A stretch of DNA of 64,000 nucleotides. Origin: a virus. Its lineage: Duplodnaviria; Caudoviricetes. The position numbers and the translations under genes were made by a program. The stretch spans positions 207-64,206 of the IMG/VR virus record IMGVR_UViG_3300032220_000132; one strand, written 5' to 3'. Positions 673 to 58,603 of this stretch are shown here, one piece after another; position 1 is the stretch's first letter; each line of letters begins with the position of its first letter. The notes beneath the pieces are model-generated. The model was not told where the DNA came from, searched no databases, and saw only the letters and a list, made by a program, of their open reading frames with translations.

Positions 673-1137
673 ATGGGTTTCGCTACACATCTAGGTCCTT
701 GGTTATTAGGGACTGTTAAAAACACCACTGGCACTGCTGCTGGTACTATCCGCAACACAGGTTGCACCGTTGTTTCCCAATCAGCTAATGTAGTTTTTGG
801 CACTTTGACTGGTAATCTAGTTACTGTTCCCGCTGGATCACAGATTGTTGATATTAAGGTTGTAACCACCACCGTATTTAGTGCAGCAACTACTGCAAAA
901 CTAAGTATTGGCGGTACTGATTTCACAACGACTGGAACCGTTACTAGCGTTGGAAGCGTAGCTTTGGGCGCCAATGCAACCACCCCAGGTGGCTGGTTAA
1001 ATGTTGGTTCTACTGATGCCACGATTACCTACACATTGGCTGGTACAAGTTTAACGACTGGAGCAGCAACAATCATCGTTACTTACGCAGTCCGTAACTC
1101 TGATGGCGGTCAGTTCCAAACCACGTTTAATAATTAA
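673..1137 (+). CDS. Virion structural protein (capsid decoration-like, beta-rich)
   Basis: SD aaggag 661-666 favours ATG 673; Thr/Gly/Val-rich with VPAGSQIVDI motif; directly after capsid gene. Confidence 0.65.
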   Translation: MGFATHLGPWLLGTVKNTTGTAAGTIRNTGCTVVSQSANVVFGTLTGNLVTVPAGSQIVDIKVVTTTVFSAATTAKLSIGGTDFTTTGTVTSVGSVALGANATTPGGWLNVGSTDATITYTLAGTSLTTGAATIIVTYAVRNSDGGQFQTTFNN

Positions 1138-4865: not shown

Positions 4866-5788
4866 CCACATCTGGAACTACAACCTTCAATCTAGATCTT
4901 AATAACCTTATTGAAGAGGCTTTTGAGCGTTGTGGTACGGAATTGCGTACTGGCTACGATATGCGGACTGCCCGCAGATCATTGAACCTGTTGACTGTAG
5001 AGTGGGCTAATCGTGGTATTAACTTGTGGACTATTGAGCAGGGGCAAGTTGCAATGGTTACTGGGCAAGGGATTTATCCTATTCCAGTCAATACGATTGA
5101 CCTATTAGATCATGTAGTTCGCCAGAATAACGGTGTTACAAGCAATCAGATTGACATCAACATTACCCGTATTTCGGAGTCTACCTACTCTACGATCCCA
5201 AATAAGCTAACAACTGGGCGTCCTATTCAGGTCTGGTTTAATCGTCAGTCAGGGCAGTCTAATACGACCGCTGTGACCTTAAACGGCACAATTAATGCTA
5301 CGACCACATCTATTACCGTTAGTGATGCTAGCGCCCTTCCTATCGGTGGCTTTGTCAAGATTGATAACGAAACAATCAGCTACGCTAACGTCATTGGTAA
5401 TGTCCTAACAAACTGCTACCGTGGTCAGAATGGTACTACTGCCGCAAGTCATACGACAGGTGCAGCAATTTCTATACAGAACCTTCCCTCAATTAATGTA
5501 TGGCCCACACCCGATGCTGGTGGTGGTCCTTATACCTTTGTGTACTGGAGATTGCGTAGGATTCAAGATGCTGGATCTAATGGCACTGTAGAGCCTGATA
5601 TTCCCTTTCGCCTATTACCTTGTATGGTGGCTGGATTGGCTTTCTATATGGCTCAAAAGCTACCAGACGGACAGGCAAGAGTGCAATTTTTAAAGCAAGA
5701 ATACGAGGAGCAGTGGCTCCTGGCTTCTACGGAGGACAGAGAGAAAGCCGCTTCTAGGTTCGTTCCTAGGACGACCTTCTATGCCTAA
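4862..5788 (+). CDS. Head-tail adaptor / tail tubular protein-like
   Basis: TFNLDLNNLIEEAFERCG...ARRSLNLL...WPTPD...LPCMVAGLAFY pattern; inserted beta-domain. Confidence 0.65.
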   Translation: MTTSGTTTFNLDLNNLIEEAFERCGTELRTGYDMRTARRSLNLLTVEWANRGINLWTIEQGQVAMVTGQGIYPIPVNTIDLLDHVVRQNNGVTSNQIDINITRISESTYSTIPNKLTTGRPIQVWFNRQSGQSNTTAVTLNGTINATTTSITVSDASALPIGGFVKIDNETISYANVIGNVLTNCYRGQNGTTAASHTTGAAISIQNLPSINVWPTPDAGGGPYTFVYWRLRRIQDAGSNGTVEPDIPFRLLPCMVAGLAFYMAQKLPDGQARVQFLKQEYEEQWLLASTEDREKAASRFVPRTTFYA

Positions 5789-36600: not shown

Positions 36601-38343
36601 GTTAAAGGAAAAATAGCAGTCTTTCCAAAAGAAGGACCCACAACAAATGGCGCAGTTCGATTAAACATCTTACGCAATGGTCGCAGAATCATCGTTGAAA
36701 TCAAGGATCCATTGATTGCCGAGTCCGTAACAGGTATGGAAGATGTTGCTATTCCTGGCATGGATGTCCTCGGTATGGCTGCAAACGGATTACGCAGAGG
36801 TATTACGTTATGGCCTGCGTTCCAAATAAGACAGCTATTTATGGATGCCCCAACAGCTGCTCTGGTTTCTGGAGTAAAGAACCCAACTAAGCTCTGGGGA
36901 GAAGTATTTGGTGGTTTTATAAAGTCAGTAAAAAAGGATGATCCTATAGTTGAGCTCTTACGGTCCTATGGAATAGGTGGATATCAGTCCTATACCAGAA
37001 CTGCAGAAATGGAACTGAAACAAAGGATTGGCTTAATTGAAAAGAACAAGTTTGATTGGTTGATGAGTAAATTAGATCAAATTGGAGATGCCTCAGATAT
37101 GGCGCAGCGTGTGGCTATATACAATCGTGTTTTGGCTGAGACTAAATCTGACGAATTTCCTAATGGCGATCAGATGCAAGCCCTTATATCTGCCAACAAC
37201 ATTATTGACTTCAAAAAACGTGGCTCAGGTCGTTTAGCCCAGTTCCTAACCAGAACTGTATCCTTTATGAACGCCTATGCCCAGCAGATTGACGTGCTGG
37301 CATTGACAATCGCTGGTTCTGGGTACACTGGCAAGAGCAAATCAGACGCCTATGTGCAGTTAGCCAAGACAGCAGTGCTGTTCTCTTTCTACGTCATGCT
37401 CTATTCATGGGCAGTTGGTGGAGAAGATGACTACGAAGAACTAGATGATCAGACAAAACTGCGTAATCTTTATATTCCAAAGGCGCTGACCAAACAAATT
37501 GGCATGGACAACGGTTTATTAATTCCAATGCACACATCGGCTAGTTTCTTCTTTAAGTCAATTCCAGAGCTAACCTATAACACAGTAATGAAAGAGGGAA
37601 CAGAAAATGAAATTGATGGCGCTCGTCTTCGTAAAGCCCTTGCCGAAGCTGCTATAGACTCATTATTAGGTCCTAACCCAGTGCCAACTGGTATCAAACC
37701 AGGTTTTGAGATTTTGCTCAATAGAAACTTCTTTACTGGTGGCACAGTAACTCCTAAAGGTATGGAAGACCTAGATGCTGTTGAGCAATACACCGCATCA
37801 ACCTCTGAGCTTGGCAAGATTCTTAGCGCTATAACTAACATCCCATTCACCGATAAGCGTATTCTTAACCCAATTGAGGCAGATCACCTAGTTCGTGGTT
37901 TATTTGGAACTACTGGTGCAGCTGTCCAGTGGGGTAGCAATATATTCTCTGGTGATCGCCCAACCGCTACAGCTAGACAGAATCCGCTGTATGGCTCGTT
38001 TATTGCCCCTGATGTAGCCCGTGGTAATGAGGAACTGTTCTATGACTTTAAGAGTAAGGTTGATAACAAGTACGAAACCTATATGAAGCTCTTAGAGCGT
38101 GATAAGGCAGATGAGGCTGATAGGTACTACAACAAGCATGCTGACCTGATCTCAGCCCGTGACTATGTGACTGGCATGGAAGTAGCCTTGCGTGACTTAA
38201 ACCGCCAGATTCGTAACACTGGTGAGGTAAAGGACAAGAGTTTCACGCCTGATCAACGTAGACAGGAGATCACTGATCTACAGCGCTCTAAGCAGGAGCT
38301 GCTAGAAGGGATTATCCAGATGCGCTTGGACTCTGGACTGTAA
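24691..38343 (+). CDS. Giant (4550 aa) polyvalent ejection protein: LPD1-like/zincin, N6-adenine methyltransferase, strawberry-notch SF2 helicase, metallopeptidase, LPD38-like C-terminus
   Basis: FGNWV...GHEWQHALD (~28290), YWSTPVELLSRSFE; VLDPTGGNG + NPPF (~29530-29735); GDDTGVGKG, DEAH, AGATGISLHA (~31300-32960); LAHEAVGH (~35040). Confidence 0.85.
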   Translation: MAIKPENVNPFAKYVEEPAEAPPENPFAKYLQISQLEEATKKYEEEVPFLQRVTDPLQAGIARIPGILPGLEVSAIQKQINAIREGKGGPRDPITGESLPFQPEEADAAIKMLQAQQSEAQKKVMAAQAEAGKYQTRPAVAALGNAKTAREAFDLFQVDPLGVMSSVSLESLPQMGPALILGAVTRNPTVGALAMGSTSFAGELSSGITEYFQDKGVDVKNPVAVNKALNDPVLFAEAYNHALTRASIIAPLDAASAGLASKMLVPKQVIKNQFAKEALNIGVAQPVAQMISGAGGEALAQLATEGEITKPGQVLMEAAGEGPSSVLETAAFGGKEAYDRLKASQPPAPPVPPAPTVTGAPPAVPPAAPTDLAPTVEEDDLAPSAIVPPSVVAPLAGMVSTEGLDPAIAQQVESLKAELLMIENRRTDPTRNVSEMELEFLAQREAEVAKEITALLTPKAPETLVTPVTPEAPVTPPVTPPVAQLDLIGRLQEFGEVIESRQDAETRFSNGEQIYAFSEQDEQPFLIRNIDEISAYTPDRLLALPAAVAEEVTTEPEVATTNQVFSNDGLQIFAGKNKEGTFVATKGNLGDGTEKTLLLDKDGNTFWGDRKESINPTTGERTIVGADKDATPATFATAKEARSAGERTLEAVPAVEETPAEPTKEEQIAINKARQEEQRAAAEAEKAEKEKAEKEKAPTEEEIAKPTGGPAIGGPAAPTGGPAAPKKVAPTEEEKKEKEEEKKAKEEEKKAREEEKKAKEEEKAQKEEQKKKIAELNTNPMKVAMETGNADAVATLLYGHAVDENLHPVIFPEEMLLRIPVETTLLSQIEDQLVKNKFRITDRAVPAKTDDPSYVGPERITISALYNPEKVSIQGGGAEFFNNRKGQITAAPLPKDATEKQKDALVTELLDLANPKKLLDIQSNPKNTFGALMFKEGLVSKIKSPGDYLFELINLNARAGGQFNTYIPSKAGNRQAIKLVIDDGKEQLVRKLLVDYVTSLQTLQAVINEHSNVTPLYDALVAKYVKDENADRIPDIYTPEGVDLRNKIEDVRLYQYIPRLFLLFSLDENSTDQTNRIVKKDAETPPELGNIIRRGMRDHRQGRDVDVQDFLQTFKFLPGGIDFGNWVNQSERAAHLNAIYDAMYDLADIAGIAPEMLGLNEKLKLAVGAQGRGGKTAAWFVPQYNEINLTKTKGDGTLGHEWQHALDWNLRTSANGKVLMADTAHTLQNMITVERVENNLRSILTNTANSENNRNTPPKKAFFNAISNSRYGEADIYRSSFTDTQFYKDALELDRGRDKPYWSTPVELLSRSFESLIYDLSKGGSPYLVGPTVADGYVSKKNGYLGTTYPAGKERPVINQIYQQMLDQIDPKTLEIKTYKIENQIIAVEELGYAVVDQYYLDRGRLGGLNWFKTKEEAKEAKEQRDGTEAILTPRLMQISKVNQSIINMAQRIDAIMDEMGLFKWPEIKNGSMAESMFYHMRQGWWPKNNRELAEYGIKAYLQAPELLGFNPAKNQREIDNYKIADFEGDRVKLKQTQEDFEAAAVRFISQVITDMRSEGSDTKAIYDHIVGLYQNQPTLDVKSVLSVSNNAYSTPLPIAYLAGMLSRVKSTTTVLDPTGGNGMLVVTANPKNVTTIEIDPHRVNNLELMQIGDVIEGDALVKIKDIQDQKVDVVLTNPPFGSLPTPVDVKSWTGQNYKIGAIDQLIAAESLRTMANDGRAVLILGSHVKPNTITSTDRVFLNWLYGNYNVADHFEIAGNLYRKQGASFPLRVLVIAGRNQTDNVFPNDFVVNRINSFDELWSRYVQASDRSEQVVVGTRKLRGPAGGADRTTRTVPTGDNLQDGETSGGMGRTGEGAGIGEQLPPTGGVNVPPSASGRGTAGGVRDTEQQQDSGEDQRGRPRGGEPSTAERSDISGEESSTELGGLSDLELDDIFNSLGKKPKTGTTTPKGEPKGVRGPRAPKGAAKTKTVIPKELEGLGLESLLDELDAALNGKAPEVTITEPTPENSDARLDKQSQEAMDRIAQNAKNTSDDPNSGLYSRKDDQEYANVKPIIQKVWEAVGQKITDTKQRIQQVYDLLVKKFGDLIKGHLRTYVNELRNTVQRRPKNQTPVQSEPIDTESRVVYLGKSRFSSDGIYLPRAQSQHAYTALENLEAQVGNIDEFVAKELGYSSIDQMAKGLAGYQIDALGLAIQANKLGKGFIIGDDTGVGKGRTAAAMIVWAKKQGKVPIFVTLSDSLYTAMYADLIAIGHGDIQVAMTNSDSKIIKDVGEGKTELVFENKKGDNDKLIKYITQNRKLPPGKDVLFTAYSQLNGGVGSPARQSAIASLVASGDAVLIMDEAHNAAGTPSDKDSMGQNAFFMSLLTGENLLGKGEEVPESWKPPPTVYLSATFAKRPDNMPLYIHTNLRYAADTPEDLTALFGKGVKTDVLQQVSSEMLVESGSMIRRERSYEGVTMEFVIDDKNTARDTREVDKVTEILRSLVNADRAFKEWIKTEGGKDAVVKLGPPGSYMGKVGPTAFNDTKSNPFTSVVHNYIGSLLLSTKTQTAVDMVVDKLNNNEKVVVGLQNTNGSALEDFVAQNNIKKGDDIPDFGWQTLIKRAVKSTTKVTLKSASGNKDMDQVVYVPYELMPPNIRAGYENVENALENFQSDLPAAPIDFIRTELEQKYVWTIDGKTHVGDTPPKGVKARHLVVKEITGRKNGIDYSGDVPKYVTLDNPSRTSMISSYQNGEESKNGPIDVLIINSAGATGISLHASVDAFDQRPRHMIVLQPHGDISVFIQLLGRIHRTGQVEWPSFTMLATGIPAERRILAMLRKKLSSLKSNTSGGSSSTKVEGVDFINMYGDVATAEYLNEHPDIQAFLSVPQYSDPAEAAGSDLAHKASGTAGLLSSADQKEFFDSIEASYIAEIDLRNATGTNALERRVLPLEAEIIKENLIEEGLDSSNPFLTDVVMAQFNVDIIGSIPTVQNIKDDISFALNGKTAQDVVNEIETDLNSVYIEVRNQIVLKQQALDEAIKNPTATEKDIAELNKQKIALDNQFATLNERKDKTLQALSNTFAIGTGFESFIVNSVPSAAVVIGIKVDKARIGKSKTGNPYSPSNFQVIIKRNIPEGRISPTLATLEGTSIERSSPWTNPPLEDWFALKSVTGGRTTRYIALGNILKAAQLFGPSGGEIAKFTLQNSKEAISGVVMPSKYVPVAISEQAVRLRNPEAAVQYLLAMWDSIVQKKYNDTQIESYKELSDTLKPLMIPNLPNPFDGEKTSTNAVILRGSAQTWQLRIDPYRPNNFKVIIAGDVPKKLITAPILKTLIPGGLAKKGNKAYEMSGGDSLTDPQKIILLVKFLHKNYPATVEADSAKFAREVMKVEFDYSESKKGLASRGPAEGGQTVEAVQAQIVPIKGITVNVLQSVDELPDNTAPADVEGMWLSGRTVYLIADNLPNAKRVQEVLAHEAVGHALLEEMLGPKLMAELVRNVQNLEKTSSLVKEIAAKVDRTQPGLSPERRAKEIVANMAERGMYKIGLVQRVIQAIRNWLRSQGYTISFSDRDIVELLNFAENYFDRKEAVRFPSLQPAPAKTQAEINRERQQQKREKAAGYFSREGEGKNTEDFDKQFAEDGFNNTPIRSSSTVKDTLLGGAKQAKQAYDNTIDAPAMAYKAMSGKLLRGITYVRNKNIWYGAGLELAEKINQKAAGLSGKLRDGQGRAMASIAITNALHAGNIAVDVIRQGSLAFNRDSQMFQAIKRPFSMANVIIEKSKLIARVGEQRAHDMIQMYFEAKRSKSINDEFQKIEEEIARLDKERLSPGLDNDQLNQILNDLLNAKQDLKQIGIAKKKVRMTEKQIDFYRKLDEKHPELGKMMENWTKVNQNMIDMMLFSKIISSKRAERLKSIEDYVPWYRIQDDMEDVHDTSTMGSVRSNTNIAKEKKFKDTEVNKDIDDIVDNMLHNVMTITRNSMRNYAANRVVDSFATRVKGKIAVFPKEGPTTNGAVRLNILRNGRRIIVEIKDPLIAESVTGMEDVAIPGMDVLGMAANGLRRGITLWPAFQIRQLFMDAPTAALVSGVKNPTKLWGEVFGGFIKSVKKDDPIVELLRSYGIGGYQSYTRTAEMELKQRIGLIEKNKFDWLMSKLDQIGDASDMAQRVAIYNRVLAETKSDEFPNGDQMQALISANNIIDFKKRGSGRLAQFLTRTVSFMNAYAQQIDVLALTIAGSGYTGKSKSDAYVQLAKTAVLFSFYVMLYSWAVGGEDDYEELDDQTKLRNLYIPKALTKQIGMDNGLLIPMHTSASFFFKSIPELTYNTVMKEGTENEIDGARLRKALAEAAIDSLLGPNPVPTGIKPGFEILLNRNFFTGGTVTPKGMEDLDAVEQYTASTSELGKILSAITNIPFTDKRILNPIEADHLVRGLFGTTGAAVQWGSNIFSGDRPTATARQNPLYGSFIAPDVARGNEELFYDFKSKVDNKYETYMKLLERDKADEADRYYNKHADLISARDYVTGMEVALRDLNRQIRNTGEVKDKSFTPDQRRQEITDLQRSKQELLEGIIQMRLDSGL
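30104..30481 (+). CDS. Nested out-of-frame gene (125 aa) inside giant protein
   Basis: GGAG 30095-30098, 5 nt, then ATG 30104; globular-looking product, while the host frame is a low-complexity G/R/T/E linker. Confidence 0.65.
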   Translation: MFKPVIVANKSWWVPENYGDLLAVQIEQPEQYQQAIISKMAKLAEEWGGLERALASANNYLRQEGSTYLPVPVDVEQLVEFVIQNNSRIAEKINEGDPEVANPAPQKEAIYLVKNQALNWEDFLT

Positions 38344-38760: not shown

Positions 38761-38783
38761 TCACTATAACACTGTTATAGTGA
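38761..38783. promoter_or_regulatory. 23-bp palindrome (operator-like)
   Basis: tcactataaca-c-tgttatagtga, lying over the predicted start of the leftward rusA promoter (ttgtac-18-tatatt). Confidence 0.6.
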
Positions 38784-38818
38784 GAATATAGCACATGAAT
38801 TATATTGGGTACAACCTA

Positions 38819-38847
38819 TTGACATACCCAAAACTCTGATACATACT
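38819..38847 (+). promoter_or_regulatory. Sigma70 promoter of recombination operon
   Basis: TTGACA-17-CATACT. Confidence 0.7.
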
Positions 38848-38877
38848 TGAGTCTAGTTTAACTGCTAGGAGAACTAA

Positions 38878-44588: not shown

Positions 44589-44712
44589 CACCAGCCCACA
44601 CTGGTATCGCACGTTCTCCACTCCTAGCAGATTGGTTTTGTGCAAAGCAAGCCCTCGGTGAACACACTCACCTCAAAACCCCCAGGCTCACACTCCTGGG
44701 GGTTTTTCTTTT
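44589..44712 (+). ncRNA. Putative antisense small RNA (seed CUCCUAGCAG)
   Basis: Promoter upstream, four hairpins, intrinsic terminator aaaacccccagg/cctgggggtttt 44675-44706, no credible ORF. Confidence 0.65.
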
Positions 44713-44726
44713 GTGAAAAAAAATTG

Positions 44727-44760: not shown

Positions 44761-45005
44761 TGCTAGGAGAATTACGAGAACGTGTGAAAGGCATAACTGC
44801 CTCTTCACTCTTCGTAACTCTCCACAGCTACACCATATAGGTCGGACATAACAACAGCTATATGGGAAGACCCCCTACTGTGGGATTAGATCTGAAACAG
44901 GGGAAAGGATGGCGAAGCCAGAGTCCTAGATCGAACGTCTGGCGGGTGCAGTGGCTCCGAAAAGCAACTGTTGAAGGCACACCTAGGAGAGGCTAGGTGC
45001 GTCCA
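44761..45005 (+). ncRNA. Long structured 5' leader of replication operon
   Basis: Long hairpin 44766-44823; ccatatag/ctatatgg; tggc-gaa-gcca; cacctag/ctaggtg. Confidence 0.5.
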
Positions 45006-49761: not shown

Positions 49762-49793
49762 AGAAAAACCCCCAGTCTTACGGCACTGGGGGT
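49762..49793 (-). terminator. Intrinsic terminator of leftward early operon (possibly bidirectional)
   Basis: acccccagt/actgggggt stem with U tract on - strand. Confidence 0.8.
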
Positions 49794-49962: not shown

Positions 49963-50128
49963 TCGGATCTACCTCATCTAATCCGTAAACCTCAACAATT
50001 TCCCAGTTATCTACATCCTTGGGATTAGCCACATCCATCCCATATTCTTCAGGATCTTCCCCATTTGGCACATCCACCTCAACATAGGTAGTCCCAATAA
50101 ATTTGACACTCATTCCATATCTACGCAT
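49955..50128 (-). CDS. Early acidic hypothetical protein
   Basis: YVEVD motif; start approximate. Confidence 0.55.
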   Translation of the reverse strand: MRRYGMSVKFIGTTYVEVDVPNGEDPEEYGMDVANPKDVDNWEIVEVYGLDEVDPNA

Positions 50129-50304
50129 GATTCTTCCTTTATTCCACATACACACAAATAAACACCTTTACAGTCAGGATCAAACCCAAAACTCTTGGCA
50201 AGATCATCCCAATCCCTTGGCACTATCTCAGGATCAACATACATCCACCCACCCTTGGGTAAAACTGTATATCCCGCTTGTTCTACCTCTTGTTGGTTAA
50301 GCAT
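50110..50304 (-). CDS. Early hypothetical protein
   Basis: MLNQQEVEQAG; ATGCTTAA overlap with SD gaggag. Confidence 0.6.
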   Translation of the reverse strand: MLNQQEVEQAGYTVLPKGGWMYVDPEIVPRDWDDLAKSFGFDPDCKGVYLCVCGIKEESCVDME

Positions 50305-50452
50305 CTTGCATCTCCTCAACTCTGACATACTCAGGTGTCTCAAAATGATCCCATGTAGATTGCTCGTATGCTTTACTAATCGCACTATCTTGATCTTTAG
50401 CATCAACTTCTACATACCCATACGATACAAACACAACTGTATATTTAGGCAT
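50297..50452 (-). CDS. Early hypothetical protein (51 aa; not in ORF track)
   Basis: MPKYTVVFVSYGYVEVDAKDQDSAI...; SD gaggag. Confidence 0.65.
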   Translation of the reverse strand: MPKYTVVFVSYGYVEVDAKDQDSAISKAYEQSTWDHFETPEYVRVEEMQDA

Positions 50453-51086
50453 CTTCCATCTCCTCAAGTTCTTTCTTCTTGGCGATCAACTGGGCAGAAA
50501 GTTCAGCATCATCCTTTTCTTTCAAGGTTTCTTCCAGTTCCTCGATCTCATCAGCAAGTTCTTGCATAGCCCATTCTTTCATGCTCTCGGTGATGCCAAA
50601 CTCAAGGTCAATGTTATCGGGGATATTGTTTTTGACATCCAACCAATTACCGCTAATGTCATAGGTCTCATCTGAACCATCCACATATTGACCGCAAAAG
50701 CAACAACCGCCCTCATAGTAAAGAGCATTCACCCCATAACCTTGATCTACCAGTTTGTCAAAGATTCCAGTAGGCGGAGACCACGCAGTGGCGAATGATG
50801 CTCTGATCTCATTTTCCTGAATATCAATGTAGGCTTCATCCGTAGTAATCTCCCACTTTGTTCCCCAGTTCTGAACCCGCCAATCCCACCATGCTGATTC
50901 AGGATTAACTGGATCGTCATTACCCTTGATACTGGGGAATGTCGGCTTGACCTTTACCTTGGTGTAATCAGGCTCAGGATGGATAGTTCCAAAGAATTTG
51001 TTTGCTTTCCACGCATCCACAAGAACCTGAATCTTCTTGGGATCATCATGGGTTATATATACAGTGTTATCGCACCAATTAGGCAT
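50445..51086 (-). CDS. DUF1281/YubB-like ferredoxin-fold protein
   Basis: MPNWCDN...WWDWRVQNWGTKW...FATAWSPP...YYEGGCCFCG. Confidence 0.8.
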   Translation of the reverse strand: MPNWCDNTVYITHDDPKKIQVLVDAWKANKFFGTIHPEPDYTKVKVKPTFPSIKGNDDPVNPESAWWDWRVQNWGTKWEITTDEAYIDIQENEIRASFATAWSPPTGIFDKLVDQGYGVNALYYEGGCCFCGQYVDGSDETYDISGNWLDVKNNIPDNIDLEFGITESMKEWAMQELADEIEELEETLKEKDDAELSAQLIAKKKELEEMEDA

Positions 51087-51264
51087 TTTGATTCTCCTTA
51101 TGTTGTTGTTCAGCCAGTCTTCTTTGCTTCATAGCCATCAGCCGACCATAGTGCATCTTGTCTTCTAATCGCCATTCGTAATATTCGATCTTGCATCTTT
51201 TCGTTAAATCGAAAAACATACTATTCATTTCCAATTCAATTTCTTCAAGTGATTTTTTAGGCAT
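51079..51264 (-). CDS. Early hypothetical protein
   Basis: MPKKSLEE; SD gaggag. Confidence 0.6.
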   Translation of the reverse strand: MPKKSLEEIELEMNSMFFDLTKRCKIEYYEWRLEDKMHYGRLMAMKQRRLAEQQHKENQNA

Positions 51265-51436
51265 TTGCTTTCTCCTCTTCAGAAATAACAAAGTAATAGG
51301 TGCTATAACATTTTGGGCAAACTACCTCGGCTTCTTCCTGCCCTTCAATCTCATGCTCGGCATGGGTAAACCCAATGTGATGGCAGTCCAAGCAAATGTT
51401 CTGCACATCATCTTCTACTTCAAAGTATTTAGGCAT
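51257..51436 (-). CDS. Early Zn-ribbon protein
   Basis: CLDC...CPKC. Confidence 0.65.
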   Translation of the reverse strand: MPKYFEVEDDVQNICLDCHHIGFTHAEHEIEGQEEAEVVCPKCYSTYYFVISEEEKANA

Positions 51437-51608
51437 CTTCACACTCCCCTGCATAAACTTCTTCGTAGATTGATTTGATAACCTCACCCTCATGCTCATC
51501 AGCACAGTATTCAATGACATCCTGAACTGTCCAATGTCCTACATGGATTGTTCTGCCTGATGCAAACTCAACCATGTAAGCCTTTTCGTAATCTGAGTCA
51601 TAACTCAT
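51429..51608 (-). CDS. Early acidic hypothetical protein
   Basis: SD gaggag; MSYDSDYEKAY. Confidence 0.65.
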   Translation of the reverse strand: MSYDSDYEKAYMVEFASGRTIHVGHWTVQDVIEYCADEHEGEVIKSIYEEVYAGECEDA

Positions 51609-51903
51609 CTTCACACTCCTCATCAGTGCTAACGCATACCTCTAACCCATCACCCTCATAAGGCACTTCGGTAATGTAATAGTAGATACGATTGACCAAG
51701 TGATAACCATCCACCACATAAGTCCCGCCATCCCCATCCACATAAGTCCATACCCGCTTTGGCTGAGTATCTGCAATACCCAAGACATAACCCAGTTCAA
51801 TGTCGTATGTCTCAAAGTAATCCCTTGTGCATTCCCGATTCTCACCTCTTGCGAGGTGATTTTGAATCGGTTTGTATTTGTCATACCATTCATCAAAATC
51901 CAT
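51598..51903 (-). CDS. Early conserved hypothetical protein
   Basis: FDEWYDKYKPIQN...FETY...VWT...GYHLVNRIYY. Confidence 0.7.
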   Translation of the reverse strand: MDFDEWYDKYKPIQNHLARGENRECTRDYFETYDIELGYVLGIADTQPKRVWTYVDGDGGTYVVDGYHLVNRIYYYITEVPYEGDGLEVCVSTDEECEDEL

Positions 51904-51912
51904 ATAGCCCCC

Positions 51913-52392
51913 TTACCAACTGGCTTGATAGTAAAACTCATACTGATCTTCGGGCAGTGATTCCAACGCACTGGTAATGCCCTCGACAGTATTCTTTAGG
52001 TCTTGCCAATACCATTCATCCTTTTCGTATGAACCAAAAAAGAATCCCTCTACTGGATCTAAATCATCATCCCTTATGCCATCAGGATCATTCAGGATTG
52101 ACTGGCACAAGTCCCGCAACTCCACCAGTTTTTCCCTTGGCACATAGGATTGCTGACACTCATCCACCCCACCCTGACAGTTTTCCACGAACCACCCATG
52201 GATAGCGTTAGCCTTTCTCCAATACATGGCATCAATGGATACTTCCTTGACCACAAGGCTCGATCCCCCAAATCGTTTCTCAGGATTACCATCAACCCCA
52301 ATCATTTGATTGACCTTTTGAGATATTTCCTTGTCCTCGTCTCGGTGAGACGAAAGATATCTCTTGGCAGTTAAATACATATCTAAACCCAT
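51913..52392 (-). CDS. Early conserved phage protein
   Basis: MGLDMYL...YWRKANAIHGWFV...GFFFGS...YQASW; leader aactgctaggag. Confidence 0.8.
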   Translation of the reverse strand: MGLDMYLTAKRYLSSHRDEDKEISQKVNQMIGVDGNPEKRFGGSSLVVKEVSIDAMYWRKANAIHGWFVENCQGGVDECQQSYVPREKLVELRDLCQSILNDPDGIRDDDLDPVEGFFFGSYEKDEWYWQDLKNTVEGITSALESLPEDQYEFYYQASW

Positions 52393-52408
52393 AACATTCT
52401 CCTAGCAG

Positions 52409-52473
52409 TTAAAGTTATGATTGCCGAATGACAATCCCTATGCCCTCACACAAAGGCATAGAAGTATCACTCA
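52409..52473 (-). promoter_or_regulatory. RNase III-like processing hairpin, copy A
   Basis: ugagugaua/ugucauucg plus cuaugcc/ggcauag; homologous to 55063-55129. Confidence 0.6.
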
Positions 52474-52722
52474 GGGCATCACTGGCAAACAGGATTGCTT
52501 ATCATCACTGGTAAACAATGCACCACCACCATTCCCCTCATCATCCCGACTGGGGAAGAACCACAGACCATCATGGGTTTGAAAAGCGATTGACCTTTCA
52601 TACCAACCCATCTCCCCCATTTCTTCCTTGGTCATGTATCGAACATTGACAATGCGTTTATGCAACAACAGTTTTTTGGCTTCATCATTCCAATACTTGT
52701 CGTAATCCTTAATTTCTTTCAT
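52471..52722 (-). CDS. Early hypothetical protein
   Basis: VRYMTKEE...PSRDDEGNGGGALF. Confidence 0.7.
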   Translation of the reverse strand: MKEIKDYDKYWNDEAKKLLLHKRIVNVRYMTKEEMGEMGWYERSIAFQTHDGLWFFPSRDDEGNGGGALFTSDDKQSCLPVMP

Positions 52723-52731
52723 CACACTCTC

Positions 52732-52809
52732 CTAGTTAAAAGTAACGATTGCAGACCACACCACATACGCAGTGTAGGCTACTGCTATTGGCACAATCCA
52801 GTCCCACAT
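52732..52809 (-). CDS. 25-aa single-TM peptide (not in ORF track)
   Basis: MWDWIVPIAVAYTAYVVWSAIVTFN; TAATG coupling. Confidence 0.5.
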   Translation of the reverse strand: MWDWIVPIAVAYTAYVVWSAIVTFN

Positions 52810-53093
52810 TACTGCACCCCCTCTAATTCGTAATCAACTTCAAAAATAGTGAGATTGTCCTTATCAATCTCAACAATGGTGAAGTCCTCACCATCATTAA
52901 GAACATCTCCCGCTTTCAACGATTCCATTTCCTGCCCAGTCAAAAAGAAGTAAATCTTTTCATCTGCCCAACTATCAAAATACGCATCTTCAGGATGACC
53001 ATCTTCTGCAACTCCCAGTAATACATTTGCACCATCACCTAACCAGTCGCAACTAATGACTGCGTCATAGGCTTTAATCTTCATTGTCGGCAT
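52809..53093 (-). CDS. Early acidic hypothetical protein
   Basis: Leader aactgctaggag, 6 nt to ATG 53093. Confidence 0.7.
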   Translation of the reverse strand: MPTMKIKAYDAVISCDWLGDGANVLLGVAEDGHPEDAYFDSWADEKIYFFLTGQEMESLKAGDVLNDGEDFTIVEIDKDNLTIFEVDYELEGVQ

Positions 53094-53112
53094 ATCCATC
53101 TCCTAGCAGTTT

Positions 53113-53218
53113 GACAAAGACCCCCCGACTGCTTCGTTTACTCATACAGGCATATTGCGTCATATACTCAGTAAGGTAATTAGGGGGGTTTCGACTATTC
53201 AAGTCTCTTCAGTTTGCC
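53113..53218 (-). ncRNA. Type I hammerhead ribozyme
   Basis: GGCAAA CUGAAGA GACU-ugaau-AGUC GAAA CCCCCC...GGGGGG UC^ UUUGUC; all core residues and GUC cleavage triplet present. Confidence 0.88.
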
Positions 53219-53403
53219 TAGTAATCCTCGTTTTCTTCCCACAGGCAAGGATCAACTAACCTTTGCCCGAAAGCATTGAACAACTGCCCACAATCACAAG
53301 CAACATCCTCGCCTGAACCATCCGAGCAGACCTTTTTATTGCACTGGCACTTCCATTCCCGCCACAGAATTCGACCAGTATCTTGGCATTCAACGATTCT
53401 CAT
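53218..53403 (-). CDS. Early Cys-rich (Zn-binding) protein
   Basis: CQC...CDCGQLFNAFGQRL. Confidence 0.65.
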   Translation of the reverse strand: MRIVECQDTGRILWREWKCQCNKKVCSDGSGEDVACDCGQLFNAFGQRLVDPCLWEENEDY

Positions 53404-53711
53404 TATTCAAACTCCTTTGGCACGATCACATCAAACTTACGCAACAGGGCTATTGCCTTGTCAGACAGGCACATCACTCCGTCATATTCATCCAAGGTGC
53501 GGACTCCAAACTGGTCAATGGTGAACCACAGACCAATGTATTCAAAACCCACATCCTCGATATCCCACTCAATGAACCCAGTAGCATCATCCCTAAAATA
53601 CAACTCCATGGTGGATTCGTGAGTCCCGATATCCTTCTCGCCCCAACTGCCTTCCATAATCAAAGGGCAGTTAAAGGTCTCTTTGCCGATAAAGTAGTGA
53701 GTCATAATCAA
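53403..53711 (-). CDS. Early hypothetical protein
   Basis: Coupled ORF; IGLWF...EYDGVMCL. Confidence 0.65.
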   Translation of the reverse strand: MIMTHYFIGKETFNCPLIMEGSWGEKDIGTHESTMELYFRDDATGFIEWDIEDVGFEYIGLWFTIDQFGVRTLDEYDGVMCLSDKAIALLRKFDVIVPKEFE

Positions 53712-54070
53712 TACTCCGAACTAAGCATAAGAACATTGTCGGTCAGGAAGAACTGATACTCCCCATCAGGGCAGTCAGTATGCTCAATATGCTTTTGTTT
53801 GAAAGTCCTGTAATCACCATCTTCAATACTGATATCGGCACTGCCATTGGCAACTGCCAATTTGATAGCCAAAAATGGCTCTTTCTTGAGCAGTGGAAAT
53901 GCTTCAGTGGCGATAATGTCCAAGAACCAGTAAGCACCATTTCCCGCATTGTCAGCAAAGTATTTAACTCCGTCAGTGTGAACCATGTCCTTAGCAAAAA
54001 TAGGATTGGTGCGATAGTAATTCTCAGTCCCATAAAACTGGGATAAATCTAATTTGGTAGTCGATTCCAT
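53708..54070 (-). CDS. DUF6876-like protein
   Basis: LSQFYGTENYY...TDGVKY...AYWFLDII...VLMLSSEY. Confidence 0.75.
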   Translation of the reverse strand: MESTTKLDLSQFYGTENYYRTNPIFAKDMVHTDGVKYFADNAGNGAYWFLDIIATEAFPLLKKEPFLAIKLAVANGSADISIEDGDYRTFKQKHIEHTDCPDGEYQFFLTDNVLMLSSEY

Positions 54071-54265
54071 TTAATTCTCTCCCTTAATTGAGGTAGGTTT
54101 TAACGATTTAACAAAAGCAACTGCGTGGTGATGAAAAGCAAATGTAGCAAGCCAGTATTTCCTAACATGGATATCAGGCTTGCTTGACACAGGACTGGCA
54201 TCATATTCGTCAAGTCTGACAACCTTAAAAGTAAAATCAGGTGTTTTTTCTATTTCATAATTCAT
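54071..54265 (-). CDS. Early hypothetical protein
   Basis: MNYEIEKTPDF; start approximate. Confidence 0.5.
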   Translation of the reverse strand: MNYEIEKTPDFTFKVVRLDEYDASPVSSKPDIHVRKYWLATFAFHHHAVAFVKSLKPTSIKGEN

Positions 54266-54653
54266 CTTCTTCATCCTCTGCACCAAGCACAGTATCGACA
54301 ATGTAATCACCAAACTTCAGAACCCCATCATCATTGGTGCATAAGGTGGCAGTCTCAAACACTACAAGCGTTGAATCCTTGCGATCATCAGTAGCGTAAG
54401 CAACAGGCACAAGACCAATCAAACCCGCATCAACTGGGTAAGTATTGCCTTTGTTATCGGGATAGCAACCATCACCCCATTTAGTGCCAAAAGCAAGAAC
54501 TTCAAAGTCCCCAACTTTGCCAACAGGGGCATTGAAGTAATTGCATGATGCAAGCAGATCGCCCCAATCCTTATCAGGCACTACATAGCAGGGATCGCCA
54601 AGGATGTAAGCACCCTTTGGAACTACGACAGATATAGAACTTAATGTAAGCAT
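54255..54653 (-). CDS. Early conserved protein (GDPCY / GDGxY / VDAGLIG family)
   Basis: Named motifs present in translation. Confidence 0.7.
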   Translation of the reverse strand: MLTLSSISVVVPKGAYILGDPCYVVPDKDWGDLLASCNYFNAPVGKVGDFEVLAFGTKWGDGCYPDNKGNTYPVDAGLIGLVPVAYATDDRKDSTLVVFETATLCTNDDGVLKFGDYIVDTVLGAEDEEDEL

Positions 54654-54655
54654 GA

Positions 54656-55045
54656 TTAGATTCCTCTGTAATTGTCAGGGTTATATTCCCGTTGATGCCC
54701 CGCATAATCAACGGCTTTGTAGTCAGCAATCTCAACATTCAAAGGGATCACCTGCAACCCAGTTAATTGCTCGATACGGCAAGCAGTCAGGATGCTAACA
54801 ATCATGGTGTAAAGATTATCATCATCAGACCTAACATCCAGTAGAAGCGAGGTGTGGCGGTCAGTAGTGCTAATCAATCTGCCAATCTCGCCAGTCCAAA
54901 CAAGCAGACCATCCTCTGTGGAAGATGGATCATTCAGGTTAGCGATGCTATGGTCAGCAAGGGCAACAGTGTTGTTGTCCTCATTGTGGAACAGGTAATG
55001 CGAGAAGCATTTCTTGGCTTCAATTTTATTAACCAATTCAAACAT
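54656..55045 (-). CDS. Early hypothetical protein
   Basis: Leader aactgctaggag. Confidence 0.7.
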   Translation of the reverse strand: MFELVNKIEAKKCFSHYLFHNEDNNTVALADHSIANLNDPSSTEDGLLVWTGEIGRLISTTDRHTSLLLDVRSDDDNLYTMIVSILTACRIEQLTGLQVIPLNVEIADYKAVDYAGHQREYNPDNYRGI

Positions 55046-55062
55046 ATTAAATCTCCTAGCAG

Positions 55063-55129
55063 TTAGTCGAATGATTGTTGAATAACAATCCCTAAACCCA
55101 TTGGGTAATGGGCTTAGAGGTATTACTCA
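55063..55129 (-). promoter_or_regulatory. RNase III-like processing hairpin, copy B
   Basis: ugaguaaua/uguuauuca plus cucuaagcccauu/aauggguuuaggg. Confidence 0.6.
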
Positions 55130-55351
55130 ATAACTGGCTCTCGCTTCTGCTTGATGCTCAGCCATCATATCGGCACGAACATCAACCATGGCTTGCAGGG
55201 ATTGGATTGTCTTAACGACATCCATATCGTTTAGGGCTAATTCTTCCAGTAATTGGCTATCATCATAGGCTTCTACTACGACATCCCAACCCATGTTGTA
55301 TAAGGCTTCAGCGTATGCTTTGATTGCTTGAATCTTGTCTTGCTCAGTCAT
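55127..55351 (-). CDS. First early gene, hypothetical
   Basis: Leader ctactaggag; YNMGWDVVVEAY. Confidence 0.7.
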   Translation of the reverse strand: MTEQDKIQAIKAYAEALYNMGWDVVVEAYDDSQLLEELALNDMDVVKTIQSLQAMVDVRADMMAEHQAEARASY

Positions 55352-55395
55352 TATTTTCTCCTAGTAGTCGAATCGGTGTTTAAGCACCTACCGAC

Positions 55396-55424
55396 AGTTT
55401 TACAAAGTAGCAATACCATGTCAA
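55396..55424 (-). promoter_or_regulatory. Sigma70 promoter of leftward early operon
   Basis: TTGACA at 55424-55419, -10 region tgTAAAACT, AT-rich upstream element. Confidence 0.6.
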
Positions 55425-55636
55425 TACCTTTTTGAAAATATTTTTAGGGCTTACTGGATAAGGGTTTGCGGGGCATGGAGTCTGGGCAAATAGACCTAAA
55501 AGCGGGCAAAGGTGCGAAGCACAACAGTCCAGTAGCAAAGACACTAGAGAGAGATATAGGAGAGATAGAAGATAGTAGTAGCAGAATCATCCTGATTGCC
55601 CTAGAATCAGGCTATGACGATTCTCAAGAGATACCT

Positions 55637-56437
55637 ATGAAAAGGCTAACAAGGAAAGAGATAGAGCAAGGCTTACAGGCTATGCCAGTGGATACTCTTT
55701 TACTGGGGGTTAGCACTGCCAAAGAAAAGCGATTAACCCACAAACAAATCGAATTTGCCAAGCAGGTAGCACTGGGAGAAAGCAAGGCAGGGGCTTATCG
55801 GAAGTCGCATAACAGTAAGGGAAAGCCAAGCACACAGAGCAAGAATGGGCAGGCTCTCGCAAAAAACAAGGCTATCCAAACCCAAATAGATGCGTTTAAG
55901 GTGGCACTTGAGGCACAGAAATATCAAACTCCTGCTCATTTAAGGGCATTGGCAATCCATCGGATCACTGAAAAGGCTCTCGATCCTGCTTGCCCGCCTG
56001 CTCAGCAACTCAAGGCACTGGAACTATTGGGGAAGATAACCGAGGTCGCACTCTTTACCGAGAGACGAGAGGTAATTAAGGTCAGTGATCCCAGTGAGAT
56101 GCGGGAGAAACTCATGGCGAGTATCAGACTGGCAATCGAGAACAGTCAGGCAATCGACATTGAGGCACGATCCGCAGACGATCTACTGGCAGAACTCGTG
56201 GGAACTAACAATCAAGATGATGATGTGGCGGGAAATGATGCAGAACTAGATGATGTGGATGCAGAGACATCCTTAAAAGAGGTGGCAGACCCTTCGCAAA
56301 AGGCAGATCTCGAAGACCCACAGACCCCCGACAGCCAAATTTTGGCATTGGCTCGTGAGCCAGACTTGCATAGTATTCCACACAATGAATCCCCTCCTAA
56401 ATCCACTGAACCTAGGGAAAACCCTGCCTCACTATAA
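55637..56437 (+). CDS. terS: Terminase small subunit
   Basis: LTHKQIEFAKQVALGESKAGAYRK HTH; QLKALELLGK; upstream of TerL; start reassigned to ATG 55637. Confidence 0.7.
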   Translation: MKRLTRKEIEQGLQAMPVDTLLLGVSTAKEKRLTHKQIEFAKQVALGESKAGAYRKSHNSKGKPSTQSKNGQALAKNKAIQTQIDAFKVALEAQKYQTPAHLRALAIHRITEKALDPACPPAQQLKALELLGKITEVALFTERREVIKVSDPSEMREKLMASIRLAIENSQAIDIEARSADDLLAELVGTNNQDDDVAGNDAELDDVDAETSLKEVADPSQKADLEDPQTPDSQILALAREPDLHSIPHNESPPKSTEPRENPASL

Positions 56438-56467
56438 CAGCTGTTATAGTGACACAGGGTAAACCCT
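56414..56467. repeat. 24-bp perfect palindrome flanked by two AGGGWAAACCCT boxes
   Basis: tcactataacagctgttatagtga 56429-56452; boxes at 56414-56425 and 56456-56467. Confidence 0.8.
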
Positions 56468-56502
56468 AACTCTTATACAAGACCCCCCACCCCCTCATAA
56501 AT

Positions 56503-56691
56503 ATGTCAGACGATAAAAAAATTGTTCCACGTGAAACACCCCCCGTCAGTGATTTGGGTCCCATCCTAACGCTAGACCCAGATGTATTAGAAGATCGGCT
56601 AAAGAGGTTAAGTGTCAAAGACCAAAAGAAATTATTGGATATGATTAATAAATATCAGGCAGTAATGTTAAGTAAGGACTCACAACCATGA
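56503..56691 (+). CDS. Hypothetical protein
   Basis: ORF coupled to next gene; weak SD. Confidence 0.45.
   Translation: MSDDKKIVPRETPPVSDLGPILTLDPDVLEDRLKRLSVKDQKKLLDMINKYQAVMLSKDSQP
56523..56538. promoter_or_regulatory. parS: Canonical parS centromere site
   Basis: tgttccacgtgaaaca = TGTTNCACGTGAAACA consensus. Confidence 0.8.
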
Positions 56692-56870
56692 ACGCACCAA
56701 AAATTACGGCAGTACAAAAAGAACAGCTCGTCTTGGATTATTTGGAAGAGTTATTACATAAAGACAAGGGTCGGTTGTTACGGATGATGAGTTATTTGAA
56801 AGAAAGAATATTGGAAGAGGAAGCAATGGCACGGGCTCAAGATGTCATTGAACGTGTCAAACATGGGTAG
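56688..56870 (+). CDS. Hypothetical protein
   Basis: SD aagga, ATGA overlap. Confidence 0.55.
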   Translation: MNAPKITAVQKEQLVLDYLEELLHKDKGRLLRMMSYLKERILEEEAMARAQDVIERVKHG

Positions 56871-57111
56871 AAAAAAGGAGAGAGAATTGACTCCCGCACA
56901 AAAAGAGATCTTCTTGGTCATAGACGAGTTTTGGAAGAAGTATGGATTTGCTCCGAGTATTGAGGATGTGATGTATATCACTGGCGAAAAGGGGCGGGGT
57001 AATGTGAGTAGGAAGATGTGGCGCTTAGTCGAGCTTGGGATCTGTAAAGGGATTAAAGGAAAAATGAGGAGTATTCGTCCTTCATACATAAAGGTAAGAC
57101 ACATTGAGTGA
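56863..57111 (+). CDS. LexA-like winged-helix DNA-binding protein (no peptidase domain)
   Basis: LTPAQKEIF..IDEFWKKYGFAPSIEDV...LVELG....RSIR. Confidence 0.75.
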   Translation: MGRKKERELTPAQKEIFLVIDEFWKKYGFAPSIEDVMYITGEKGRGNVSRKMWRLVELGICKGIKGKMRSIRPSYIKVRHIE

Positions 57112-58603
57112 TCAATTACAACGGTTTTTAGAGAGCCTTCCAGAAGGTGATCGGGAGAACCTGTTTGCCATGGCTGAGGATTATAAGAACTCGGTCATTC
57201 GGAAAACGGCTGAAAAGTCGTTTATGGCGTTTGTTAAACAGATGTGGCCTGGGTTTATATTGGGTAGACACCACGCTTTGATGGCTAAAAAATTTGAGGA
57301 GATTGCCGATGGTAAAGTTAGACGCCTTATTATTAATATGCCTCCTCGTCATACTAAATCTGAGTTTGCGTCATATCTTCTCCCTGCATGGTTTCTAGGC
57401 AGATATCCGCATAAGAAAGTTATTCAGTGTTCCAATACTGCCGAACTAGCGGTAGGCTTTGGACGTAAAGTTAGAAACTTAGTCGATGGAGAAGCCTATG
57501 CCAAGATATTCCCAAATGTCGCTTTGCGAACTGATTCCAAGGCTGCTGGTCGTTGGGCTACTAACGCCAACGGTGATTATTTTGCTATTGGTGTGGGCGG
57601 TACCGTTACTGGTAAAGGAGCAGATTTGCTCATTATTGATGACCCCCACTCGGAACAAGAGGCAGCTTTAGCCGCCTCCGATCCAAGTGTCTACGACAAA
57701 GTCCATGAATGGTTTACCTCTGGTCCACGTCAGCGTCTCCAACCTGGAGGCTCAATCGTGATCGTGATGACCCGCTGGGGTAAACGAGATTTGACTGGCA
57801 GAGTCCTCCAGTCCATGATCGAGCGTGACGGAGATGAATGGGAAGTCATTAATCTCCCAGCGATCATGCCCACGGGAAAACCGTTATGGCCTGAGTTCTG
57901 GTCGTTAGACGAATTAGAAAAACTAAGAAACGAACTCCCGATCTCCAAATGGTCAGCCCAGTACCAACAAGATCCGTCAGCTGAGGAAGGCGCCCTAGTT
58001 AAACGAGAATGGTGGCAAGTCTGGGAAAAGGATAATCCTCCGATTTGTGACTTTATTATTCAGTCTTGGGATACCGCCTTTACGAAAAATGAACGCTCAG
58101 ACTATTCCGCATGCACGACTTGGGGTGTCTTTCGTAAAGACGAAGACCCCAGTGACGTGCATATCATTCTCTTAGACGCCCTAAAAGAACGGTTAGAGTT
58201 CCCCGAATTAAAGATCCGAGCCATGGAAATGTATAAGGAATGGGAGCCAGATGCGTTTATAGTAGAGGCTAAGGCTTCGGGTGCTCCGTTAGTTTTTGAG
58301 CTACGAAGAATGGGTATCCCTGTACAAGAATTTACGCCAACCCGTGGTAATGACAAGATCACCCGTGTAAACTCTGTAGCAGACATCTTTGCATCAGGAA
58401 AAGTATGGGCGCCAAGAAAGCGCTGGGCTGAGGAAGTGATAGAAGAAATGGCAGCATTTCCCAATTCAGACCATGACGACTTGGTAGACTCCGCAACACA
58501 AGCGTTGATACGATTTAGAAAAGGCGGTTTTATCCGATTACAAACAGACGAGGAAGACGAGATTAAGTACTTCAAGTCTAAGCGAGCAGTCAGTTATTAC
58601 TAA
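57104..58603 (+). CDS. terL: Terminase large subunit
   Basis: MPPRHTKS, LLIIDDP, YQQDP, SWDTA, IVEAKASG, HDDLVD. Confidence 0.95.
   Translation: MSDQLQRFLESLPEGDRENLFAMAEDYKNSVIRKTAEKSFMAFVKQMWPGFILGRHHALMAKKFEEIADGKVRRLIINMPPRHTKSEFASYLLPAWFLGRYPHKKVIQCSNTAELAVGFGRKVRNLVDGEAYAKIFPNVALRTDSKAAGRWATNANGDYFAIGVGGTVTGKGADLLIIDDPHSEQEAALAASDPSVYDKVHEWFTSGPRQRLQPGGSIVIVMTRWGKRDLTGRVLQSMIERDGDEWEVINLPAIMPTGKPLWPEFWSLDELEKLRNELPISKWSAQYQQDPSAEEGALVKREWWQVWEKDNPPICDFIIQSWDTAFTKNERSDYSACTTWGVFRKDEDPSDVHIILLDALKERLEFPELKIRAMEMYKEWEPDAFIVEAKASGAPLVFELRRMGIPVQEFTPTRGNDKITRVNSVADIFASGKVWAPRKRWAEEVIEEMAAFPNSDHDDLVDSATQALIRFRKGGFIRLQTDEEDEIKYFKSKRAVSYY

Follow-up and report, generated by a model that had tools for sequence, protein, structure and literature searches.

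A two-state RNA hairpin bounded by a stop codon and a translation leader exchanges position with hammerhead ribozymes in phage operons

The DNA analysed here, hereafter the window, is a stretch of 64,000 nucleotides (nt) of a tailed-phage genome (IMG/VR record IMGVR_UViG_3300032220_000132, positions 207 to 64,206; Duplodnaviria, Caudoviricetes), and it carries two intercistronic hairpins on its minus strand, at 52399-52474 (hairpin A) and 55053-55130 (hairpin B). Both belong to an RNA element which is bistable, runs from the stop codon of the upstream gene to the leader of the downstream gene, contains a helix of about 22 base pairs (bp) and exchanges position with a self-cleaving ribozyme. 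From the comparative analysis we favour, with moderate confidence, the explanation that a double-strand-specific nuclease, probably RNase III of the host, would cut the long helix and that the downstream mRNA would then refold into a second hairpin serving as 5' protection. What is new here is the motif, the refolding strand built into it, its fusion with a stop codon and the exchange between it and ribozymes during evolution.

In a repeat search 52398-52445 aligned with 55052-55099 over 48 nt at 79% identity. The minimum free energy fold of each 65-67 nt element was a single long hairpin, of 22 bp in A and 23 bp in B, in which a 1x2 internal loop, with C on the 5' side and AU on the 3' side, separates a lower stem, P1, from an upper stem-loop, P2; the fold energies were -25.8 (A) and -25.5 (B) kcal/mol with z = -4.24 and -6.29, respectively, and none of 200 shuffles was as stable. 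In hairpin A the 5' strand of P1 (CUGAGUGAUA, 52465-52474) holds the UGA codon (52471-52473) that ends the upstream open reading frame (ORF) of 84 amino acids (aa), P2 (UUCUAUGCC..loop..GGCAUAGGG) spans 52436-52463 and the 3' strand of P1 (UGUCAUUCGG) lies at 52424-52433. Hairpin B is built in the same order, with the 5' strand of P1 (UUGAGUAAUA) at 55121-55130, holding the UGA stop codon (55127-55129) of a 74-aa ORF, P2 at 55090-55119 and the 3' strand of P1 (UGUUAUUCAA) at 55078-55087; the P2 stems of both copies, and the 3' strand of P1 in B, were delimited by the fold together with pairing among homologues. The long hairpin carries compensatory pairs between the copies, UGAGUGAUA/UGUCAUUCG in A as against UGAGUAAUA/UGUUAUUCA in B. 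The 3' strand of the long hairpin, together with the bases that follow it, can form an alternative hairpin, P3, which was placed by homologue alignment and which again differs by compensatory changes: GAUUGUC-AUUC-GGCAAUC (52419-52436) in A and GAUUGUU-AUUC-AACAAUC (55073-55090) in B. In A the 3' strand of P1 overlaps the 5' arm of P3, its loop and the first 2 nt of its 3' arm. After P3 comes the shared 12-nt leader AACUGCUAGGAG, the Shine-Dalgarno region, at 52399-52410 ahead of a 159-aa gene starting at 52392 and at 55053-55064 ahead of a 129-aa gene starting at 55045. The same leader is found after a hammerhead-like element at 53113-53218(-) and after a promoter near 38820(+), and a near variant, ACUACUAGGAG, follows the promoter near 55424(-).

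The two window copies alone offer few independent changes, and the main support comes from 43 distinct homologues in viral contigs. Covariance model R1, built from 25 distinct copies, found 77 copies (43 distinct) at E <= 2.8e-7 in the window and in 42 out of 124 viral loci that were searched. When viral contigs were scanned for exact matches to a degenerate 20-mer from P3, 17 loci came up, 14 of them genuine, the other three (L013, L014, L016) being dropped as chance matches within coding sequence, and a scan of viral contigs for the 14-nt leader gave at least 119 stretches. Matches of R1 at E > 1e-6 were dropped on inspection as terminator-plus-leader or hammerhead regions. A weak R1 match in the window at 44621-44715(-), of 25.6 bits, was also dropped as a family member, being differently arranged; there, as in L012 and L021, a terminator hairpin with a U run precedes two small hairpins and the leader variant CUGCUAGGAG, after which comes a gene with a GUG start.

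Pairing was counted on a 25-sequence alignment (A4). The long helix, P1 plus P2, was paired in 90.8% of cells as against 82.4% in shuffles, a level reached by none of 500 shuffles, with double changes at 8 of 20 pairs, and controls in which the partner strand was slid paired in 26-51%. Its inner five P1 pairs are well kept, and P2 is paired in 99.6% of cells with double changes at 3 pairs. P3 is paired in all 25 sequences (100% of cells) with double changes at 3 of its 7 pairs; among the double-change pairs of P2 and P3 is one that is G-C in 12 sequences and A-U in 12. The covariation score of P2 plus P3 was 0.402 as compared to 0.194 in shuffles, again reached by none of 500, and sliding the partner by 1-3 columns lowered pairing to 33-45%. 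Neither fold can be reduced to the other. The pairing of P3 goes beyond what the long helix explains, because the distal part of its 3' arm falls outside the long helix and yet covaries. Conversely P3 alone cannot account for the data and the long helix is needed, because changes in the P3 loop are matched by changes in the strand carrying the stop codon (UGAGUG with CAUUCG; UAAGUG with CAUUUG or CAUUUU; UAGUG with CAUUA or CAUUG; UAGAG with CUUUA). In a duplex test of the P3 loop against the stop-codon strand, native partners gave -6.29, swapped partners -3.6 and shuffled partners -2.79 kcal/mol, which we take as moderate evidence only, because UGAUAC is common to the subtypes. G-U pairs are frequent, which implies that both folds belong to the sense RNA. 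These results show that both folds of the hairpin element are under selection at the RNA level. The original prediction had proposed homology of 52399-52473 and 55053-55129, compensatory changes in the long hairpin as well as in a second one, and an alternative covarying fold, and it holds in all of these respects.

The family comprises several subtypes. Subtypes A and B are the two copies of the window; in type 3, P3 reads GAUUAUC..GAUAAUC; type 4 has the 5' strand GUGCUGUAAUCC and replaces the internal loop by a 2-nt bulge; a subtype with a UUUA loop is found in L015 and L045; and type 5 (L068, L015, L128) has P3 of the form GGCUA..UAGCC and a P2 unrelated in sequence. For type 4 RNAalifold itself gives the long helix with 20 pairs, the outermost of which is AU in 4, UG in 3, GC in 2 and GU in 1. 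Type 5 is unrelated in sequence and has the same architecture, with a helix of 22-23 bp whose 3' strand takes in the 5' arm and loop of P3 as well as the first part of its 3' arm. GGAUU is invariant in all 35 aligned sequences, and its pairing partners vary by subtype. The P3 finder parsed 40 of the 43 distinct elements, failing on three with variant leaders, and with P3 blocked the helix measured 22 bp in 13 elements, 21 in nine, 23 in eight, 20 in three and 19 in one, that is, 19-23 bp in 34 of the 40. In these 34 the first base of P3 stands 10-13 nt from the base of the helix, near its middle. The end of P3 is separated by 5-15 nt from the leader AACUGCUAGGAG. In the folds the Shine-Dalgarno region is unpaired, and neither state sequesters it or the start codon. 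In being conserved and in lying upstream of the ribosome binding site without occluding it, P3 resembles a 5'-terminal stabilising stem-loop, and it begins at mid-helix, where a cut would be expected to create the 5' end. A further relative, known from the end of an RNA-library contig, has a type 4 hairpin ahead of the 159-aa gene.

The element is fused to the end of the preceding gene. In all 43 distinct elements an upstream ORF of at least 40 codons (one of them truncated at 25 codons by the contig end) terminates inside the 5' strand, at UGA in 26, UAA in 10 and UAG in 7. The position is thus intercistronic, as is typical of RNase III sites, with the upstream stop codon inside and the leader and start codon after.

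Between the two hairpins, in the same operon, lies a type I hammerhead-like element (53113-53218, minus strand). Its stem I is GGCAAA/UUUGUC, its core CUGAAGA ... GAAA, its stem III holds an insert of about 56 nt, and its GUC triplet predicts cleavage between 53119 and 53118, followed by the leader at 53100-53111. This copy had no match in Rfam, and the hammerhead of a relative scored 29 bits against RAGATH-1-hammerhead (RF03152), under the gathering score of 56.3 bits. Among 39 distinct hammerhead-type upstream strings 32 gave a full type I parse and the parser failed on seven; in the parsed set stem I covaries, all strings have stem II, GAAA and stem III, the core reads CUGAUGA in 27, CUGACGA in 3 and CUGAAGA in 2, and the triplet is GUC in 31. 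The predicted cut falls 9 nt before CUGCUAGGAG in 24 of the 32 and at 8-11 nt in the others. Hammerhead modules have no hairpin after the predicted cut. In several relatives (e.g. L018, L026, L087) the stem III insert contains two tandem copies of a motif like AUGAGUCCGCAAAUUGC.

The original prediction had left it to be checked whether relatives exchange hairpin for ribozyme in place, and they do. We took 203 leader occurrences with a following ORF of at least 30 codons, clustered the proteins and read the upstream sequences; counts are rows by regex label, and the hairpin rows of the four clusters given here were checked by eye. Upstream of the orthologues of the 159-aa window gene (51913-52392) there is a hairpin in 20 rows (12 distinct), a hammerhead in 10 (6 distinct) and nothing else; upstream of the gene beginning MESTT a hairpin in 26, a hammerhead in 9 and a promoter in 1; upstream of the orthologues of the 96-aa window gene (52809-53099) a hairpin in 3, a hammerhead in 9 and nothing else; and upstream of the gene beginning MANWKQE a hairpin in 2, a hammerhead in 4, a promoter with a 5' hairpin in 1 and another sequence in 1, the promoter label being a loose pattern and no proof of a promoter. 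The regex classes are imperfect, and six rows labelled as hairpins in the cluster of the first operon gene are promoters which contain GGATTATC by chance and were not counted. Orthologues of this first gene show that the leader may also be preceded by other hairpins: four unrelated hairpin sequences open their promoter-derived leaders, and the same spacer and Shine-Dalgarno sequence follow. The plus-strand leader at 38833-38871 has no 5' hairpin, and the rule is not universal. Furthermore, in L017 (about 5005-5091, minus strand), L021 (1992-2078, plus) and L052 (5085-5171, plus) a type 3 hairpin is represented by its 5' arm, UUGAUACCUGUAA, which runs into a hammerhead and an extra gene (MANWKQE), after which a complete hairpin follows. 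Judged by their arrangement, these hybrids are the exchange captured midway, and their junctions suggest cassette insertion through recombination within the element.

These observations are what the favoured reading seeks to explain. In the first state, the helix of about 22 bp (P1 plus P2), beginning at the upstream stop codon, would be the substrate of a double-strand-specific endonuclease, and the cut is placed near mid-helix, at the start of P3. In the second state, the 3' strand of P1 and the next 5-7 nt would refold in the released downstream mRNA into P3, placing the 5'-monophosphate end within a paired stem 5-15 nt before the leader, and the upstream mRNA would retain P2 as its 3' hairpin. 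The module would then do the job of the hammerheads that replace it, namely turn a polycistronic early transcript into separately protected mRNAs. The cleavage, the nuclease, the position of the cut and the protection by P3 are the parts of this model that we infer. RNase III accommodates about 22 bp, according to PMC6212723, which also describes it as cleaving preferentially in intergenic regions within transcripts and in 5' untranslated regions; the resemblance to RNase III sites which had been claimed for the two hairpins is thus sustained as regards size, the lengths found here matching the 20-22 bp or so expected of such a site. RNase III products carry a 5'-phosphate (PMC6212723), hammerhead cleavage yields a 5'-OH (PMC6765202), and RNase E is described as being drawn to 5'-monophosphate ends (PMC8565310, PMC11194081). 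This preference of RNase E, together with the different ends left by the two kinds of cleavage, would explain why P3 is present in hairpin modules and no such hairpin is present in hammerhead modules. Primary transcripts can be converted to the monophosphate form, and the same preference would then explain the hairpins on many promoter-derived leaders.

Several observations weigh against the model of nuclease cleavage and refolding. The outer five pairs of P1 are unpaired in 2-15 of the 25 aligned sequences, mostly of type 3; on the 25 sequences RNAalifold chooses P2 plus P3 over the long helix; and in type 3 the two states are almost isoenergetic or P2 plus P3 is favoured. Many of the sequences are close kin, and the independent evolutionary events are therefore fewer than the cell counts imply. 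In the remaining six of the 40 parsed elements the 5' flank is paired elsewhere in the constrained fold and the helix is just 14-15 bp; several of the six attain 20-23 bp once the extra 5' flank is removed. A phage-encoded RNase III was looked for and none was found. Five RNA runs were found as assembled contigs, and of the contig sets aligned to the window (X1-X4) X4 gave no match. Contigs of X1 span both hairpins unbroken (52183-52740 and 54961-55280) and no cleavage end was seen, which is uninformative on processing because contigs cannot show ends and may be DNA or unprocessed RNA; no RNA-library contig is listed over 53097-53131, which says nothing on processing either. Finally, with the stop codon inside P1, a ribosome that terminates there has to open the stem, and the switch could thus act in translation instead of cleavage.

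This last point leads to the alternative of a ribosome-gated switch without cleavage, in which ribosomes terminating in P1 would open the helix and allow P3 to form, tuning downstream translation, re-initiation or stability. It would make sense of the stop codon in the 5' strand of every distinct element, of the covariation in both states and of the closeness in energy of the type 3 states. However, the Shine-Dalgarno sequence and start codon are hidden by neither state, the element is replaced at orthologous sites by a hammerhead, whose sole known activity is cleavage, and the constant length of about 22 bp is given no role; we consider such a switch rather unlikely. Somewhat easier to entertain, as a minor possibility, is a ribosome-gated processing site, whose helix could be cut only while its built-in stop codon is free of terminating ribosomes and which would couple the separation of the mRNAs to upstream translation.

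The invariance of GGAUU in 35 of 35 sequences despite differing partners speaks of conservation beyond the needs of pairing, and it could mean that another nuclease, or a phage-encoded RNA-binding protein, reads the conserved GGAUUG junction and not the length of the helix. But type 5 lacks GGAUUG, having GGGGCUA or GGGGCUG instead, and keeps the architecture intact, and no candidate protein is at hand, Pfam being empty for most of the neighbouring small proteins; we hold this explanation to be clearly unlikely.

Identical elements also stand ahead of different genes, hairpin B preceding a gene beginning MFELVN in the window but one beginning MANWKQ in L007 and L018. Together with the mosaic junctions at elements, where in L017, L021 and L052 a hairpin remnant is fused to a hammerhead and its gene, this agrees with a cassette boundary at the DNA level, at which hairpin and leader would be a patch of homology for gene-cassette swaps and RNA structure would be secondary. 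As a full account it is quite improbable, as compensatory changes and sense-specific G-U pairs point to selection on RNA pairing; it can hold together with the favoured nuclease reading.

The sharing of a genomic niche with hammerheads further raises the thought of a new and very small self-cleaving ribozyme class, whose active fold would arise via exchange of P1 and P3. Twister was recognised as a ribozyme through shared gene association (PMC6765202), and the hairpin is without a match to any Rfam family. Against this, nearly all conserved nucleotides are paired, the terminal loops are variable, and the 1x2 loop of A, B and type 3 is fully paired in type 4, leaving no conserved unpaired core, which makes this reading very doubtful. 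A weak intrinsic terminator or attenuator formed by P2 and a U-rich tail is hardly credible: the consensus scan does list both P2 stems as terminator-like (tails AUUGUCAUUC and AUUGUUAUUC), but no U run follows P2, type 5 having GCUAAUG or GCUGAGG there, the operon already ends in a proper U-run terminator at 49768-49793, expression of the downstream operon genes is still required, and a hammerhead would be unable to stand in for a terminator.

Known systems resemble the element in part. Early mRNA of phage T7 carries RNase III processing signals between genes (R1.1 type), and like these the present element lies between cistrons of a phage polycistronic mRNA as a hairpin roughly two helical turns long, is interrupted at mid-helix, in subtypes A, B and 3, by a small asymmetric internal loop and would, after the proposed cut, leave its upper stem at the 3' end of the upstream mRNA. 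Unlike them, the hairpins described here, which have no sequence similarity to the T7 signals and whose cleavage is predicted, carry a covarying P3 that overlaps the lower stem, have a stop codon built in and are replaced by a ribozyme in relatives. RNase III sites in general are cut at defined phosphodiester bonds, double cuts leaving 2-nt 3' overhangs, and have favourable base pairs, and none that are antideterminants, in the proximal and distal boxes around the cut. Lambda cIII mRNA has alternative structures linked to RNase III, and its switch exposes the start codon. The hairpin element likewise has two mutually exclusive folds in a phage mRNA, with a proposed link to RNase III, but its ribosome binding site is covered by neither state. 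Stem-loops of the ompA type at the 5' terminus stabilise bacterial mRNAs; P3 is comparable in that it is short, stands 5-15 nt before the leader and leaves the Shine-Dalgarno sequence free, and the promoter-derived leaders of these phages open with such a hairpin, but P3 would come to lie at a 5' end only once processing had allowed one strand of the cut helix to refold. In the synthetic RiboJ insulator a self-cleaving ribozyme and then a hairpin precede the ribosome binding site. The design logic is similar, as upstream context would be removed and a short defined leader left; in contrast, the phage element is natural, a nuclease-cut helix would take the place of the ribozyme, and the natural hammerhead modules are without a post-cut hairpin. 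Tandem hammerheads in prophage and phage polycistronic RNAs were described by Perreault et al. 2011 (PMC3088659). With these and with RAGATH-1-hammerhead the hairpins share a niche between small phage genes within one transcript, but they lack CUGANGA, the GAAA junction and a three-way junction, and would need a protein nuclease.

The hairpin motif is new to Rfam. The whole window searched at the gathering score gave Betaproteobacteria-1 alone and no family at the hairpins, and searches of 50000-58000 and 52385-52490 against Rfam 15 at E <= 10 gave chance-level matches only and no ribozyme or RAGATH family, the 8-kb search also having failed to catch the hammerhead-like element at 53113-53218. 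Eight related loci searched at E <= 0.1 again gave Betaproteobacteria-1 alone, with the hammerheads there likewise missed. RAGATH motifs are RNAs near genes associated with twister and hammerhead, and the hairpins occupy the hammerhead niche and match no RAGATH model of Rfam. Also, blastn with 88 nt against cultured and GenBank phages gave no match to the hairpin, nor did two exact patterns in cellular genomes. In the literature we found no account of a hairpin replacing phage hammerheads; an unnamed related motif may sit in supplementary listings. The Betaproteobacteria-1 RNA itself was strongly matched in the window at 44831-44947(+), with 98.3 bits, and in L128 at 986-1100(+), with 88.9 bits, and it may be a clue to the host group.

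The window is nearly all of a viral record of 64,206 bp with direct terminal repeats. The closest nucleotide matches of the 8-kb region were to terminase genes only, of Pelagibacter-type phages at about 64-68% identity; as judged from this similarity, which is confined to the terminase region, the window phage is without a close cultured relative. Both hairpins are housed in a minus-strand operon of small genes. Its promoter (55373-55424, minus strand) was read by eye, with TTGACA at 55419-55424 and TAAAAC at 55397-55402 separated by a 16-nt spacer, and is missing from the consensus promoter scan because its -10 hexamer ends in C. The transcript opens with the hairpin UCGGU..ACCGA (55373-55394), followed by the leader variant ACUACUAGGAG, and the U-run terminator that closes the operon at 49768-49793 is listed by the consensus terminator scan. 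From promoter and terminator we infer that the genes flanking both hairpins are probably co-transcribed. A crude ORF map combined with direct reading of the sequence left three non-coding gaps between 55352 and 51913, namely 55046-55126 (hairpin B), 53100-53217 (hammerhead-like element) and 52393-52470 (hairpin A). A fourth apparent gap, 52726-52808, is occupied by a 25-codon ORF, MWDWIVPIAVAYTAYVVWSAIVTFN, at 52737-52811(-), which looks hydrophobic and has its own ribosome binding site, GAGGGGG; its stop codon overlaps the leader-like UAACUAGGAG preceding the next gene. Among ten neighbouring proteins DUF6876 alone scored above the Pfam cut-off.

Elsewhere in the window a single ORF of 4550 codons occupies 24691-38343(+), and about 4.7 kb near 10200-14900 contains, in the crude ORF map, ORFs of 35-108 codons only, with large gaps. 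Near-perfect palindromes at 56413-56468 and 38763-38790, with the common core CACTATAACAG/CTGTTATAGTG, lie next to the divergent promoter regions that bound the early regions on either side and look like operators to which a dimeric regulator would bind.

What bacterial and phage hammerheads do is "largely elusive" according to a 2019 review, which has polycistronic processing as a suggestion only (PMC6765202). This phage group amounts to a natural substitution experiment, in which the same gene stands behind a promoter with a 5' hairpin, a hammerhead or a two-state helix and the leader remains constant. Should the helix prove to be a nuclease site, what the three have in common would be a defined and protected 5' end just before the ribosome binding site. 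If true, this would provide a concrete and testable function for phage hammerheads, and the hairpin element would be a natural counterpart to engineered mRNA insulators and a compact part for operon building.

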